In this document: piece by piece, positions 33,001 to 39,000 of the stretch
Position numbering within the stretch: the first letter of the stretch is position 1
Layout of the letters: each line of letters starts with the position of its first letter
From: Syntrophorhabdaceae bacterium
Lineage (GTDB): Bacteria > Desulfobacterota > Syntrophorhabdia > Syntrophorhabdales > Syntrophorhabdaceae
Direction: 5' to 3'
DNA length: 64,000 nucleotides
Assembly: GCA_963666485.2 (NCBI GenBank)
Contig: CAXXUO010000001.1
Coordinates: 480,001-544,000 of the forward strand
Program-made: the position numbers

Positions 33001-36000
33001 GAGGTGGAAGAAGCCAGGAACCGGGGCATCCTCCTCGAGATAAGCGCCCGGAAGGGACATTCTTTGACTAACGGGCACGTGGCGCGCCTCGCCAGGTCGC
33101 TTGGCGCCCGGCTTGTCCTCAACACGGACTCACACAGCCCGTCGGACCTGATAACGGATGACGAGGGCCGCAGCATAGTTCGGGGAGCTGGCCTTACGGT
33201 CGATGATTTCACGGAGATGCAGAAAAACGCCCGGACCCTCGTGCGGAAGATAACCGGCTGACCGATGAAATTCTCCATCAGCGACAGTGTGAAGAACATC
33301 CCTTATTACCCCAAAGCCCTCATGTACGGTCACGAGGACGGATGGGTGCGCCTATCCTCCAACGAGAACCCCTTCCCGCCGTCCGAGGCGGTCTTCGAGA
33401 CCATTCTCGACGCGCTTTTCGCTATAAACCGCTATCCCGGCGGGGAAAAGGAATTGAAGGACGACCTCGCCGCGCACTATGGGCTGTCCGCCGAGAACTT
33501 TGTCATCGGCAACGGGTCGAACGAGCTCATCGAGATGTCTCTCAGGGCAATGAAGCACGATACGCGCAATGGGGTCATCGTCACCGAATCATCGTTCGCA
33601 TTTTACGAGATAGCCGCAAAGATCTACGGGTATACGATAGAAAAGGTACCCCTGAAAGACCTGACCACGGACCTTAACGCCATTGCCGGTGCGATACATG
33701 AACGGACCAGGATCATTTTTCTCAACAACCCCCTGAACCCGACAGGGACTATGTACGGGGACCGGGAATTCGATGATTTTGTCCGGTCCATTCCCCCGGA
33801 TATCCTGATCGTTGTGGATGAAGCATACGCGGAGTTTGCGCAAAACGAACATTTCCCGACAACGCTCTCCTATATCAAGGACCATCCGGTTCTTATTTTC
33901 AGGACATTTTCCAAGGCATACGGCCTCGCGGGCCTCAGGGTAGGCTACGCGATCGGGGACCCGGGACTGATCTCCTTCCTCGAACGGACGAAGCAGCCCT
34001 TCAGCATCAACCTCATCGCCTGCCTCGCTGCACGCGCCGCATTGAAGGACAAGGCCCGGCTCAGGAAGGTCCTCGACAACAGCGCGAAGGCGCGGCGTTT
34101 TTACTACGACGCCCTCGAAGCCATGGGCCTTGCGTATGTCCCCTCCGAGGCTAATTTTGTGCTCATCCGCATAGGTGAGAGGGCGGAAGAGATTACCCGC
34201 ACGCTTTTCGACAGAAAAGTCCTTGTACGTTTCATGGGGTCCTACGGCTTTCCGGATTGCATCCGCATATCGTTCGGCACGCCCGCCGAGAACAAGCGGT
34301 GCATTGAAGAATTAAAGAAGCTGATCTGATACCCTGCCGGCCTTTTTCCTATCCGTAGAGCGTTTTCATGAGAGTGGGCGGTTCGCCCGGACCGAATGCC
34401 GAGTCTTCGACCTTTTTGAGAAAGCGCCTGTAGAGCCTGGTTTGCTCCTCGAACTCGACAAGGAACGCATCGTGGCCGTAACTCGACCGCAATATGTGGC
34501 ACTTCGCGTCGATGCCGGCGGCCCGGCATATCTTGACGATATTCTGCGACTGATAGGGAGGATACAGCCAATCTCCCGAGAATGCGATGACAAGGAGCTT
34601 TGTCTTGATCCCCGCGAGAAATTTGGCCGCCGGGCTGTAATTCGCCATGCTGAAATAATCGGCCGCCCTCGTTATATACAGGTATGAATTCGGATCGAAA
34701 CGGTTAACGAAGTCGTATCCCCTGTAATGCAGGTAATTCTCTACCTCGAATTCCGGGCCGAACTTGAATTGTCGTGCCCCGTTCTTCGTTCGCCTGCCGA
34801 ATTTTTCGTTCATCGACGTATCGCTCATGTACGTGATATGCCCGATCATCCGGGCAACGCTCAGGCCTTTTTCCGGCACGCGCTTTCCGTAATAGTCCCC
34901 GTCGTTCCAGTTGGGGTCCGCCATGAGCGCCTGGCGCCCTGCCTCGTTGAACGCGATCTGCTGGGGCGTGTGCTCCCATGTGGTCGCGATGAGTATGGCC
35001 GAGGCCACCCTGTCCGGATATGAGACAACCCACTGCAGGGCCTGCATGCCCCCCATCGAGCCCCCTGCCACCGAAAGGAGCCTCGCGATGCCGAGATGAT
35101 CGAGGAGGCGCACCTGGGCATTCACCATATCGCGTATCGTGACAAGCGGGAAATCGAGCCCCCACGGCCTTTGCGTCGAAGGGCTCACAGATGACGGGCC
35201 CGTCGATCCCGCGCAGCCGCCGAGGACATTGCTGCAGATGACGAAATACTTTTCCGTGTCGAATGCCAGGCCGGGGCCTATCATATTGTGCCACCAGCCC
35301 GGCCCCTTCTGTCCTTTGTGAAAACCGGCGGCATGTGCATCCCCCGTCAGGGCGTGGAGGATAAGCACCGCGTTCGTGCGGTCCTCGTTCAGCTCCCCGT
35401 ATGTCTCGTAGCACAGGGTGACGGGGCTTAAGCTTTCACCGCTTTCCAGCATGAACCTGCCGGGCGGGCCGGCGAACGTAAAATACCGCGGCTCAACTAT
35501 TCCGATCCTGTCACGTTTCTTCTTCACCATTTTTCAGAACATTAGTTTTATCCGAACCCCTGCACTTATGCAACAGGAATCGGGAAATGGTTCCGCGGAA
35601 ATTTTCCGGGAACTTTTATATATCATACGGTGTCATATAAATTATGACAGATCGCAACGGATGGATGGAAGAATGGAACTCAAAAGTTTAATGATATTGT
35701 TGATGTTCGCGATATTGACCGGATGTGCGGTCGCCCCTGTAGACCGGTACTACGCATCGGAACCATATTATGCTGCGCCCTGTTGTCCCCCTCCCCCGTG
35801 CTGCAGGCCCGCTTATGGATACTACGGCGGGTATAAAGGCATCTCCGGAGGAGGGTACGGTGGAGGGCACCACAAGTCCGGCTCCCGGCATCACCGGTAG
35901 ACAGCCCGCCTTTTAACCGCCGACAACGACAGTCCTCAAGACCTCTTCTACGCTGATCGCACCCTCCTTCGCCAGGATAAGGCAGTAATCCTTGAGTGAT

Positions 36001-39000
36001 ATCATGCCCGCCGCCAGGGCCGCATCCCGTATGGCCAGCGTGCTTGCGCCTTCGGCTATGAAATGGCGTATGTCCTCGTTGACATTCAAGACCTCGTATA
36101 CGCCGATCCTCCCCTTCGTCCCCTGATTCCTGCAGGCATCACAGCCTTTACCCCTGTAGAACGTCGTACCGGCGGGGAGCCCGAGGTATTCACACGCGGC
36201 CGCGTCTTCGTAGGCCTCCTTGCAGTTCGGGCAGATCTTCCTGACGAGCCTCTGGGCGACAACGCCGATGATAGAGGCGGAGACCAGGAACGGTTCTATC
36301 CCCATCTCCGTGAGACGCATGAACGTGCCGGGGGCGTCATTGGCGTGGAGGGTCGTAAAGACGAGGTGGCCGGTGAGGGCGGCTTCGACGGCGATCTTCG
36401 CCGTCTCCTTGTCCCTTGTTTCCCCGACGAGTATCACGTCCGGGTCCTGCCTGAGGAATGCCCTGAGGACACGGGCAAAGTCGAGGCCGATGTCATGGTT
36501 GACCTGTATTTGGTTGACACCCCTCAGATCATACTCGATCGGGTCCTCTGCCGTGGAGATATTCCTCTTCACATCATTGATCTCTGCAAGCGAGCTGTAC
36601 AGAGTTGTGCTCTTCCCCGAACCGGTGGGCCCCGTCACGTATATTATCCCGTACGGCTTCTTGATCATGTCCCGGACGAGGTTGAGGACCGGGGGATGGG
36701 ATATCAGCTTATCGAGCCCCAGGGTCGTATTTGTCTTGTCCAGGATCCTTGTACATATTTTTTCGCCGAACTTGGCAGGGACTGTGGACACGCGGAAGTC
36801 GATGGACTTGTTCCCCATCTTGATCGTTATACGGCCGTCCTGCGGCAGCCTTCTCTCCGTGATATCGAGCTTGGAGATGATCTTCACCCTGCTGATGAGG
36901 GGAAGCTGTATCTTCTTCGGGAGTACCATGTCCTCCTGCAGGTCCCCATCGACGCGATACCGTACCCTCACCTCTTTTTCCATGGGTTCGATATGGATAT
37001 CGCTCGCCCCCTTCTTCAGGGCCATGGCAATGATGCTGTTCGTCAACTTGATGATCGGGGCGCCTTCGGCCTCTTTTTCTATGTCGGGGATGCCGAGGTC
37101 CTCGTCGCCCCCTTCGTCCAGGGCAAACTCCTTGAGGATATCCGACTGGATATGGTCCATCGACTCGACAAAGCTTTCGATATCGAGGGAGTCGTCCTTG
37201 GTCAGGGTCTTGTATTCCGAATCCATGAATTTAAAAAAATCTTCCTCGTTGACAATGACGAGGTCAAAAAATACCTTCGGGTATTTCTGCTGTACCGCTT
37301 TTTTTATCTCGTCGATCGCCGTGACATTGCGCGCATCGACAACGGCCAGCGTGATCTTGCCATTCACATAGGACGTGGGCAGTATCTTATGCTTGCGCAC
37401 CAGATGCTCCGGGACGCAGGCCATAATGGAATCGTCGTGCTTGAGCGTATGAAGGGAGACGGTGCCGGGGGATTCCCTGTTCTTCATTTCCTCGATGCGG
37501 TCGGCAACGATCCTGCTCAGCTCTATCGACAAAGACTGGTGTTCATGAAGCAGCACGTCGAAATCGTTCTTCATGAGGACCAACACCTTCGTATTGCCGG
37601 ATGCCATAACGGTCGCGGAACGGGGGTTTCCCGTGAGCAGCGCCATTTCCCCGAAGGCAGCCCCGTCGCCCAGTGTCGTAATGGCGACATCGAAATCATT
37701 GTTCTTGGGGTCCCTTTTCCGTATCTCAACTTTTCCCTCGATGATGATAAACATCGCATCGCCGGGCGAGCCTTCGCGGACTATCGCGTGGTTCGGCGGA
37801 TATGACCTCTCGATCATCCTTGCAGAAAGCCTCAGCAGTTCTTCGTCAGGAAGGTCCCGAAAGATGTCCGTATTTTTTAACAGCGCCATCCTGTTGACGT
37901 TCGGCGTATTCATATCAGGCATACTGCTTCCCTCCTTCACCCTTATAATACCGGAGAATATTTATTTTTTGAAGTCCTGCGCGCATGCTTCCCCCTGGGC
38001 CGGTCCCGATTCCTTCAAGCTCCCCGTCTGCCCCTTTTTCCGGGCTGCCCAGTTAAGGACCCTCTGGCTTGCCTGCGGGCCCCACCCGACGATGATCTCC
38101 CCGTCCATGTCGATCGTCGGTACGGCGGTGCGGCCGGTCAACCTCTTCAGTTCTGCCACCCCTTGAGGGTCATTCCCGACATCGATCTCGGTATATGCGA
38201 TCCCGTTGTGCGAAAGAAACTCTTTCGCCTGTCTGGCATACGGTCATTGCGATGTCATAAAGAGCCGTAACTCCCCCTGTACGACATTCGCAGGTGTTTC
38301 CGGGCGTTGTCTTTTTAATAAGGGGTACCCGTAATACATGATCGCTATGCAGACGAGCACGATGACGATCACGGTCGGCGCAGCCGACCTTTTCTTCTTT
38401 ATGACGGGGCCCGGTGCTGTAATGTCCGGCTGCCGGTAACTGACCGAGCCCTGTTGCGGAGCGTTTCTTTCGGACCAGTATTTTCTGACTATTTCGTAGG
38501 CCGAACTTGCCTCTTTCAGCCTCTGCCAGGCTTCCGGGTCGCCGGATGATTGCTCGGCCTGGTATCTGCGTACCAGTTCACGGTACTTTGCCTCTATTTC
38601 GTTTAACTGCGCCGTTTCGGGAATATCGAGGACCTTGAACATCCTCTGGGTGAGCTCATCCATTTCATCCCCCTTATAGCGGTGGTATGTGCCGTATTTG
38701 GAAACCCAAGAATCATATATTAATAATTGTCGATTTTTATTGCAAAAACTTTGTGATATGGCGAGAATGACAAAACCGGGATAAATAAACCTAACAGAAT
38801 ATCTTCATCGGGAGTACAAGCCTGCTTCGGGCAGACTGGGCTTTTTTAAATCGATTAATTCCTCAGGGGGAGGTATATTCTCATGACCGATAGAGAGGAG
38901 TACATGTGTCCTGCCTGCCAGAGCACAATTACGGATGGCGACCTGATGCGATGCCCTCATTGCTATCATTTCTTCGGGCAACAGAGAAGAACAGCACCGC

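Follow-up and report, generated by a model that had tools for sequence, protein, structure and literature searches.

A PilB-type ATPase with an N-terminal cyclic-nucleotide-binding domain, a candidate cAMP-gated pilus motor in Syntrophorhabdales and beyond

Can cAMP act on a type IV pilus at the motor itself? In the available part of PMC11656802, c-di-GMP is described as working on the motor and cAMP through transcription, and gating of PilB by its N-terminal domain is called poorly understood. The question is raised by a gene in the 64,000-nucleotide stretch of a Syntrophorhabdaceae genome analyzed here (the window). Its product, P0001, carries a cyclic-nucleotide-binding (cNMP) domain ahead of the C-terminal half of MshEN (MshEN_C) and a PilB-type ATPase (Table 1), a layout that we call cNMP-PilB.

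Architecture of the window protein

The survey's finding had been a pair of paralogues, each with an N-terminal cNMP domain, an intact phosphate-binding cassette, the C-terminal half of MshEN, and a full PilB-type ATPase, and Pfam and motif evidence agree with it. P0001 matched cNMP_binding at residues 38–127 (E 1.2e-20), MshEN at 155–234 (profile positions 6–81 of 90), and T2SSE at 285–663. The paralogue, at C1:1180022-1182034, shares 67% identity with it over 666 aa. Scanning for promoters and terminators was uninformative, with 5 and 6 sites versus 2.8 and 3.9 in shuffled sequence.

Table 1. Layout of the P0001 gene, with positions counted along the window and residues along the protein
Feature	Position	Strand	Details
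cNMP-MshEN_C-PilB ATPase gene P0001	35913..37922	-	669 aa; ATG at 37922, stop ends 35913
Shine-Dalgarno-like AAGGAGG	37931..37937	-	8 nt before the P0001 ATG, read from sequence
Cyclic-nucleotide-binding domain, residues 10-148, family-typical loop insert	37479..37895	-	Pfam PF00027, solved-sequence matches, model secondary structure
Phosphate-binding cassette, residues 90-103	37614..37655	-	G91, E92, R101, S102, A103
C-helix, residues 129-147	37482..37538	-	conserved R142; ~6 residues to MshEN_C
MshEN_C (N1D alpha/beta subdomain), residues 153-240	37203..37466	-	Pfam PF05157; without four-helix MshEN_N
Acidic low-confidence linker, residues 241-285	37068..37202	-	D/E = 16/45 residues
PilB-type ATPase	35916..37067	-	
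ATPase motifs			Walker A 431-438, Asp box 459-463, Walker B to E501, His box 518-526
ATPase arginine pair and zinc cysteines			357-358; 564/567/594/597

All the motifs of a PilB/GspE extension ATPase were found (Walker A, Asp box, Walker B, His box, and arginine pair), and the four zinc cysteines were invariant in both sets of aligned sequences, 32/32 and 22/22. The alpha/beta subdomain N1D (GSPII) is present as PF05157 at residues 155–234, and six of the seven solved-structure matches to MshEN_C were type IVa pilus (T4aP) PilB/PilF chains, with E values of 0.005–0.06. A first structure model, built on 32 sequences, had low confidence in the ATPase region (pLDDT 61); a second, of the paralogue, reached pLDDT 83 and superposed on Thermus PilF and Geobacter PilB with a target-normalized TM of 0.91–0.93 and an rmsd of about 2 Å.

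The c-di-GMP motif NF053729, a tandem 24-residue motif in MshEN_N, was passed by three other PilBs of this genome, C1:34697 (55.6 bits; cut-off, 38), C1:647835 (45.0), and C8:130336 (75.7), and no match was reported for P0001 or its paralogue. This division had been noted before, along with a count of three further PilBs; those three do carry the motif, but the genome holds seven PilB/GspE ATPases rather than five. The remaining two, the type II secretion (T2SS) GspEs C9:236882 and C9:408154, are also without MshEN_N, so absence of this module is not by itself unusual. P0001 fell below the cut-offs of the PilB model TIGR02538 (551 of 676, where the canonical PilB of the order scores 727) and of the GspE model TIGR02533 (560 of 630, which both GspEs of this genome pass with 677 and 646). 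Cyanobacterial PilB1 likewise fails the PilB cut-off, with 513. From its motifs and domains, P0001 is predicted to be an intact pilus-extension motor in which the usual c-di-GMP sensor has been exchanged for a cAMP-type binding domain.

Conservation and ligand of the nucleotide pocket

The cNMP domain has the beta-barrel, the GE...R phosphate-binding cassette, and the hinge/C-helix of the CRP/PKA/CNG group. Pocket residues G91, E92, and R101 were kept in 139 of 141 sequences from the order (a partly redundant set), in all 119 homologues from a search with P0123, and in 21 of 26 distant family members, the other five being degenerate. The domain evolves slowly, with a dN/dS of 0.031–0.056 for the window copy (three pairs) and 0.021–0.054 for the other copy (four pairs), equal to that of the ATPase (0.02–0.05) and below that of MshEN_C (0.05–0.18). 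The nucleotide pocket is thus under strong purifying selection. The window gene itself is a second, genus-restricted copy, found in 8 of 19 genomes of the genus. It is a duplicate of an order-wide copy, with the pocket kept here and lost in a sister lineage: three of the eight second copies combine a 3-residue deletion with loss of R101 and an R142-to-H change, and these pocket-less copies show a dN/dS of 0.14–0.16. A free-standing copy of the cNMP domain also exists.

Which nucleotide would such a pocket read? The residue after the pocket arginine is Ser in 113 and Thr in 28 of the 141 order sequences. Ser or Thr at this position is seen in cGMP-binding domains, and the pocket would therefore be compatible with cGMP too. 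The closest solved sequences were PKG, PKA-R, MloK1, and CRP-family chains, headed by cGMP-dependent kinases, and the C-helix residues with which CRP reads the adenine N6 are not kept, the family having M146 and N/K147 at what we take, through CRP numbering, to be the matching positions. Together with the persistence of pocket-less copies, these observations speak for a T4aP motor whose pocket recognizes cGMP or some other cyclic nucleotide, or whose domain is mainly a protein-docking module. We regard this as unlikely: an acidic/arginine pocket conserved across phyla is unneeded for pure docking, and the cyclases of this genome look adenine-specific. All nine class III cyclase genes counted by the survey were recovered, and eight of them have Lys at the position that we presume to specify adenine.

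Distribution, gene neighborhoods, and partner machine

The order-wide copy occurs in 72 of 96 Syntrophorhabdales genomes, in all four families, a wider spread than the 27 of 40 genomes known before. An origin within the order had seemed plausible from a first phylum sample of 401 genomes, in which 17 had a match (14 full-length and 3 cNMP-only) and every full-length match lay inside the order. Wider searches overturned this, and with it the idea of an order-specific family, by placing the same architecture in several phyla, including Myxococcota (28/351 genomes of the phylum sample) and Acidobacteriota (4/351). ESM Atlas clusters of the family hold 1307, 339, 169, and 57 members. cNMP-PilB is a cross-phylum family.

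In the ATPase tree, the cNMP proteins and the PilBs of cyanobacteria and Melainabacteria fell on one side of a branch, with supports of 91 (299 rows) and 93 (84 rows) that lie below the threshold of 95. A C-terminal Tyr motif, present in 215 of 216 family members, is common to cyanobacterial PilB1. GspEs fell outside the clade, and this, with the score under the TIGR02533 cut-off, led us to reject a GspE identity; of the earlier label "PilB/GspE-type", only the PilB half holds. A single clade of fusion proteins was not rejected by the AU test (p 0.50), and the cNMP-domain tree left two groups of them on an open fork.

No pil gene adjoined a family gene in the loci read, inside or outside the order, in keeping with the survey's placement of both genes outside pil operons. 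P0001 and its relatives are orphan genes rather than members of a pilB-pilT-pilC cluster; the canonical pilB of the order is an orphan as well, and in this genome neither the T4aP cluster (C8:157-174 kb) nor pilC (C1:1288779) has a linked pilB. At the order-wide locus, the family gene runs in the same direction as an isoprenyl transferase gene and a VTT/DedA membrane gene, and it faces tolQRA/uppP. No conserved partner gene was found in eight Acidobacteriota loci, and a cNMP protein lay upstream in 3 of 10 loci of a Myxococcota-rich clade.

Most carriers have another motor. An orphan MshEN-type PilB is kept in 55 of the 72, so the view that a cNMP domain replaces the MshEN module stands as a description of the domain swap but not of the genome, where the protein is usually an extra motor. 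Canonical PilB (37/96 genomes) and the C1:647835-type PilB (35/96) are almost mutually exclusive, and their presence rejects cNMP-PilB as the sole T4aP motor of the order as a general rule. Among ten seemingly cNMP-only genomes inspected, five had some other orphan PilB and two more a REC-domain ATPase; in G033 and G034 (95–97% complete), the only other PilB sits in an MSHA-like operon. Conversely, 16 genomes have T4aP pilC and canonical PilB without the cNMP-PilB gene, which is therefore dispensable.

This near-constant place beside a complete motor, the envelope genes around the order-wide copy, and a signaling role in exopolysaccharide production given for Myxococcus xanthus PilB in the portion of PMC5544727 at hand would suit a modulator rather than a working motor, forming mixed hexamers with MshEN PilB or signaling to exopolysaccharide or envelope synthesis. 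We think this rather unlikely, given a complete and strongly conserved catalytic and zinc apparatus, an envelope neighborhood that is absent at the window copy and outside the order, and the few genomes that seem to be without another free PilB.

As for the machine that would be driven, T4aP pilC is present in 71 of 72 carriers, and the cNMP-PilB gene is missing from six of the seven genomes without pilC; class III cyclases occur in 72/72 carriers, and all seven cyclase-less genomes are without the gene. This co-occurrence is weak, since pilC and cyclases are near-universal in the order (89/96 each) and related genomes are not independent. T4aP PilM gave a strong match in all five carriers checked outside the order; the genome studied here has a T4aP PilM at C8:162125 and an MSHA-like PilM at C1:40112, besides GspL-like proteins. 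G003 combines the gene with an MSHA-like operon and no T4aP PilM match, which, with the lack of linkage to T4aP genes and the similar scores from GspE and PilB models, would fit an ATPase serving an MSHA-like pilus, a T2SS, or several such machines. That reading is quite unlikely in our judgment: the MSHA-like operon and both T2SS (gsp) operons of this genome carry their own ATPase, GspEs lie outside the clade, and MshEN_C resembles T4aP PilB/PilF chains. We infer that the partner machine is probably the T4aP.

A candidate second motor among known systems

We give slightly better than even chances to cNMP-PilB being a second, cAMP-gated extension motor of the type IVa pilus, much as TfpB stands beside PilB. 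The PilB1 tree, the pilC and cyclase co-occurrence, and the adenine-type cyclase motifs favor a type IVa motor and cAMP, and suggest that cAMP may be able to act on the motor itself as an on or off switch for pili. The protein would be an active hexameric ATPase that docks on PilM/PilC and has a cyclic mononucleotide as its allosteric regulator, cAMP being the likeliest candidate. Binding in the pocket would move the C-helix, which lies about six residues away from MshEN_C; that subdomain is believed to contact the PilM stator, and the shift would thereby license (or block) docking or turnover. In most genomes, one pilus could then be driven by either signal through the cNMP-type or the c-di-GMP-type PilB, and in a few small genomes cNMP-PilB may be the only T4aP motor. 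A broader proposal, which we consider somewhat less likely than not, is that cAMP-gated motors form an ancient family spread over several phyla and use the type IVa machine alongside c-di-GMP-gated PilB, each messenger owning a motor that competes for one pilus, with cNMP-PilB the sole motor in some lineages and cyanobacterial PilB1 a close relative, perhaps derived by regaining an MshEN-type N-terminus.

If true, a cAMP pocket on the motor itself would bring pilus extension under the control of cAMP within seconds, and in the syntrophic Syntrophorhabdales could couple the energy state of the cell to its contacts with partners. The family offers a natural way to probe N-terminal gating of PilB: it is sizeable, soluble, and easy to assay, with pocket-less copies and the free-standing domain as natural controls.

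The MshEN-type ATPases Vibrio cholerae MshE, M. xanthus PilB, Clostridium perfringens PilB2, and Thermus thermophilus PilF share with cNMP-PilB an N-terminal nucleotide sensor, MshEN_C, the N2D/CTD ATPase, and the zinc site, as far as described in the accessible parts of PMC11656802 and PMC5013675. Where cNMP-PilB has a CRP/PKA-type domain, they have MshEN_N, a module that binds c-di-GMP but neither cAMP nor cGMP (PMC5013675, same parts). Cyanobacterial/Melainabacteria PilB1, the nearest characterized kin in the ATPase tree, has an MshEN-type N-terminus, unlike cNMP-PilB (its motif is incomplete in Synechocystis, according to the part of PMC10124867 available), and is encoded in pilB-pilT(-pilC) operons, whereas cNMP-PilB genes are orphans. 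Desulfotalea psychrophila DP2226 also joins a cNMP domain to a PilB/GspE ATPase, but at the C-terminus and with MshEN kept; P0168, of the same layout, fell outside the cNMP-PilB clade. This MshEN-T2SSE-cNMP fusion is already in print, as a row of Supplementary Table 4 of PMC5013675 that bears no functional reference in the section available. Our literature searches returned no title describing the N-terminal variant, and none on Syntrophorhabdus pili. In Pseudomonas aeruginosa, cAMP controls type IV pili through Pil-Chp/CyaB/Vfr, by transcription and not on the motor (PMC11656802, available part). Acinetobacter baylyi TfpB is not an orthologue (P0001 scores 414 of 850 bits on NF053534), and the portion of PMC8213720 at hand mentions no cNMP domain in it; in the same portion, TfpB is a phylogenetically distinct second extension motor that works beside PilB on one pilus, and 15 of 16 species with TfpB also have PilB.

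Domain architecture and the motors of the genome

The window gene encodes a PilB-type motor ATPase, and Pfam bore out the survey's finding of an N-terminal cyclic-nucleotide-binding (cNMP) domain joined to the C-terminal half of MshEN and this ATPase. c-di-GMP is bound chiefly through the four-helix MshEN_N, according to the available text of PMC5013675. The survey had proposed that MshEN_N is absent from both cNMP proteins, and this held: neither gave an NF053729 match, and the three other PilBs of the genome pass.

Coordinates of the window gene and the domains of its product
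Feature	Position	Strand	Basis
Window gene	37922-35913	minus	uninterrupted frame, 669 aa
Ribosome-binding motif	8 nt upstream of window gene start	minus	sequence
cNMP_binding	residues 38-127 of window protein		Pfam
MshEN (PF05157)	residues 155-234 of window protein		Pfam; match is the alpha/beta subdomain, MshEN_C
T2SSE	residues 285-663 of window protein		Pfam

The window protein has a complete set of ATPase motifs and four zinc cysteines, and the nearest PDB chains to its MshEN_C, as weak matches, are T4aP (type IVa pilus) PilB/PilF. A structure model of the paralogue (C1:1180022-1182034; 58 sequences) had a mean pLDDT of 83, with only the acidic linker low, and its ATPase part fits the structures of Thermus PilF and Geobacter PilB with an rmsd of about 2 Å. 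Judged by the names of its homologues, the genome belongs to Syntrophorhabdaceae.

Seven PilB/GspE ATPases are encoded in this genome: the two cNMP proteins, two GspEs inside T2SS operons (MshEN_N is missing there too), one in an MSHA-like operon, and two orphan MshEN proteins (C1:647835 and C8:130336). On C8 the T4aP cluster holds pilMNOPQ-like genes together with minor pilins, two pilA, and an adhesin-like gene; all names except PilM and PilC were deduced from sequence and position. This cluster, pilC (C1:1288779), and pilT/pilU (C2:250850-253000) each lack a linked pilB. The window gene does lie outside pil operons, as first described: its neighbors are genes for a DnaJ-domain protein and an alpha/beta hydrolase, and pilus genes are absent nearby. 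Two ORFs of 371 and 175 aa adjacent to each other (window 40174-41840, plus strand) had no Pfam match, the former with a relative at C1:299370 (printed start). The T4aP PilM frame (C8:162125-163816, L066) spans 563 aa with an N-terminal membrane DUF5684-like part; similarly long frames occur in the genus and some others, and frames of about 360 aa in the rest of the order. MSHA-like operons of several genera (e.g., L252, L254, L256, L266, L268) have a pilT-like gene directly upstream of pilB, which is missing from that position here.

Distribution within and beyond the order

Conservation of the architecture across Syntrophorhabdales was confirmed, with 72 of the 96 genomes matching residues 1-290 (among good-quality genomes, 58 of 68), mostly as one copy per genome; a few matches were split or ended by a contig edge. 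The order-wide copy is the orthologue of C1:1180022. Across 20 loci fetched, it has a VTT/DedA gene next downstream, often an isoprenyl transferase or MoxR/vWA pair upstream, and often tolQRA and uppP facing. The window gene itself is the second copy, which 8 of the genus's 19 genomes possess. A free-standing cNMP protein of 152 aa (C1:607671-608129, L074) shares 54% identity with the paralogue's N-terminal domain, is nested in the order's clade, and occurs only in this genome and G027 among the 96; it is a split-off copy that delimits the domain and might work as a decoy. ATPases of about 860 aa with two response-regulator receiver domains, beside a small gene (G012:C4, L259; G011:C100, L273), are another sensor-fused PilB/GspE in the order.

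A sample of 401 genomes of the phylum gave full-length matches only within the order. The restriction this implied was overturned when a profile was searched against 1.84 billion representatives, which gave full-length matches among the best 150; the cNMP-MshEN-T2SSE layout was confirmed by Pfam in 20 of the 28 matches scanned first and in P0208. Spread outside the order, left unchecked by the survey, thus takes in, as far as members are named, Myxococcales, 'Deltaproteobacteria', Acidobacteriota (Terriglobia, Vicinamibacterales), and Ca. Xenobia. An N-terminal profile (245 positions) hit at least 28 of 351 genomes from the phylum to which a Myxococcales record belongs and at least 4 of 351 from that of a Terriglobia record, both lower bounds because only 7 candidates were scored per genome. 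ESM Atlas clusters under this automatic domain name have 1307, 339, 169, and 57 members, Myxococcota being commonest.

Other cNMP-ATPase layouts comprised two N-terminal cNMP domains (P0210), a C-terminal cNMP domain (P0168), and a cNMP-ATPase without an MshEN match (P0225). Some members from Acidobacteriota have an extra zinc ribbon at the N-terminus (L156:4786-7200, L370:7746-10040), and P0188 has one at the C-terminus, as in cyanobacterial-type PilBs. At three Myxococcota/Deltaproteobacteria loci (L302:6411-7949, L306:1818-3350, L314:3-776), another cNMP-domain protein is encoded just upstream, one with a weak TPR match.

Nucleotide pocket and cyclases

Of 141 order sequences (121 proteins and 20 loci, with some overlap), 139 retain the phosphate-binding residues G91, E92, and R101 (window protein numbering), as do 21 of 26 distant sequences and all 119 from the P0123 search. 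The cNMP domain has a dN/dS of 0.02-0.06 (7 pairs), similar to the ATPase and rough since dS >1. In three of eight second copies (G013:C220, L006; G015:C58, L007; G020:C353, L005), three changes coincide, namely deletion of 3 residues, loss of R101, and replacement of the C-helix residue R142 by H; dN/dS reaches 0.14-0.16 in their cNMP domain and 0.07-0.09 in the ATPase, which is intact. Judged by sequence, these are natural signal-blind variants.

All 72 carriers of the family encode one or more class III cyclases (median 5.5); the 24 non-carriers, relatives not being independent, have a median of 1, with none in 7. Lys occupies the first specificity position in eight of the nine cyclases of the window's genome, and Thr or Ser the second in five of five readable, a combination that we take to indicate ATP as substrate. 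The Ser/Thr following the pocket Arg is compatible with cGMP as well. It is unlikely that the pocket reads a ligand other than cAMP or that the domain serves solely for docking.

Cyclic nucleotide binding moves the C-helix in CRP-family proteins, and nucleotide in this pocket would similarly shift it. The C-helix ends about 6 residues before MshEN_C in structure models. MshEN_C is thought to contact the stator (PMC11656802, available text); given this proximity, binding would govern docking or turnover of the hexamer.

Partner machine and known systems

A FastTree phylogeny built from 299 ATPase domains, after removal of tandem ATPases, partial domains, and redundant rows, placed all 39 N-terminal cNMP proteins within one 50-row clade (support 91) that also includes cyanobacterial and Melainabacteria PilBs. 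IQ-TREE on 84 rows recovered clade A (Syntrophorhabdales and Acidobacteriota, support 99) and a Myxococcota-rich clade B (support 100); canonical PilB and GspE lie apart from both of these and the cyanobacterial group (support 93). A single grouping of cNMP proteins was compatible with the data (AU test, p-AU 0.50), and the cNMP-domain tree favored neither a single nor a separate grouping. A C-terminal Tyr motif, common to cyanobacterial-type proteins, occurs in 215 of 216 clade A sequences. Cyanobacterial members of the group have their genes in pilB-pilT(-pilC) operons, and their PilB is a T4aP extension motor (PMC10124867, available text); T4aP extension motors are therefore the closest relatives with a known role.

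By thresholds of our own, T4aP pilC is present in 89 of the 96 genomes and 71 of 72 carriers, and six of the seven genomes lacking it also lack the family gene. That the ATPase serves another machine is the least probable reading. Outside the order, T4aP PilM was found in 5 of 5 carriers, which have a PilB of their own adjacent to pilC, and no pil gene was recognized adjoining the family gene in the loci read (neighbors judged by similarity to proteins of the window's genome). Canonical MshEN PilB, scored likewise by our own thresholds, occurs in 37 of the 96 genomes and the C1:647835 type in 35, with one shared; these MshEN-type orphans (L235-L246 versus C1:647835-649562, L071) are nearly mutually exclusive in the order. 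The latter groups with Omnitrophota PilBs, and replacement through transfer is suggested.

Two free motors occur in 55 carriers, and the canonical motor alone accompanies T4aP pilC in 16 genomes. Neither type is present in 17 carriers; of 10 inspected, three (G033, G034, and G003) had no PilB besides the family gene other than that of the MSHA operon, two others had in addition a REC-domain ATPase, and a further orphan PilB was present in five. A modulator or signaling role for the ATPase is improbable, if slightly less so than service to another machine. We lean toward the family being a cyclic-nucleotide-gated second extension motor of the T4aP.

The architecture is real, and databases hold it under generic names: a PilB-type motor variant, broad in spread and open to direct testing. 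A literature search, with most subscription journals outside its scope, found no publication on the N-terminal cNMP form. Direct motor control is by c-di-GMP and cAMP control is transcriptional, in the available part of a review (PMC11656802). The cNMP-ATPase fusion as such is already in print, as MshEN-T2SSE-cNMPbind of D. psychrophila DP2226 in Supplementary Table 4 of PMC5013675; that table, which covers MshEN-containing layouts, lacks cNMP-MshEN_C-T2SSE. DP2226 differs from the window family in domain order and in retaining MshEN. A second extension motor is known in A. baylyi TfpB (PMC8213720, available text), which fits our reading of the family.
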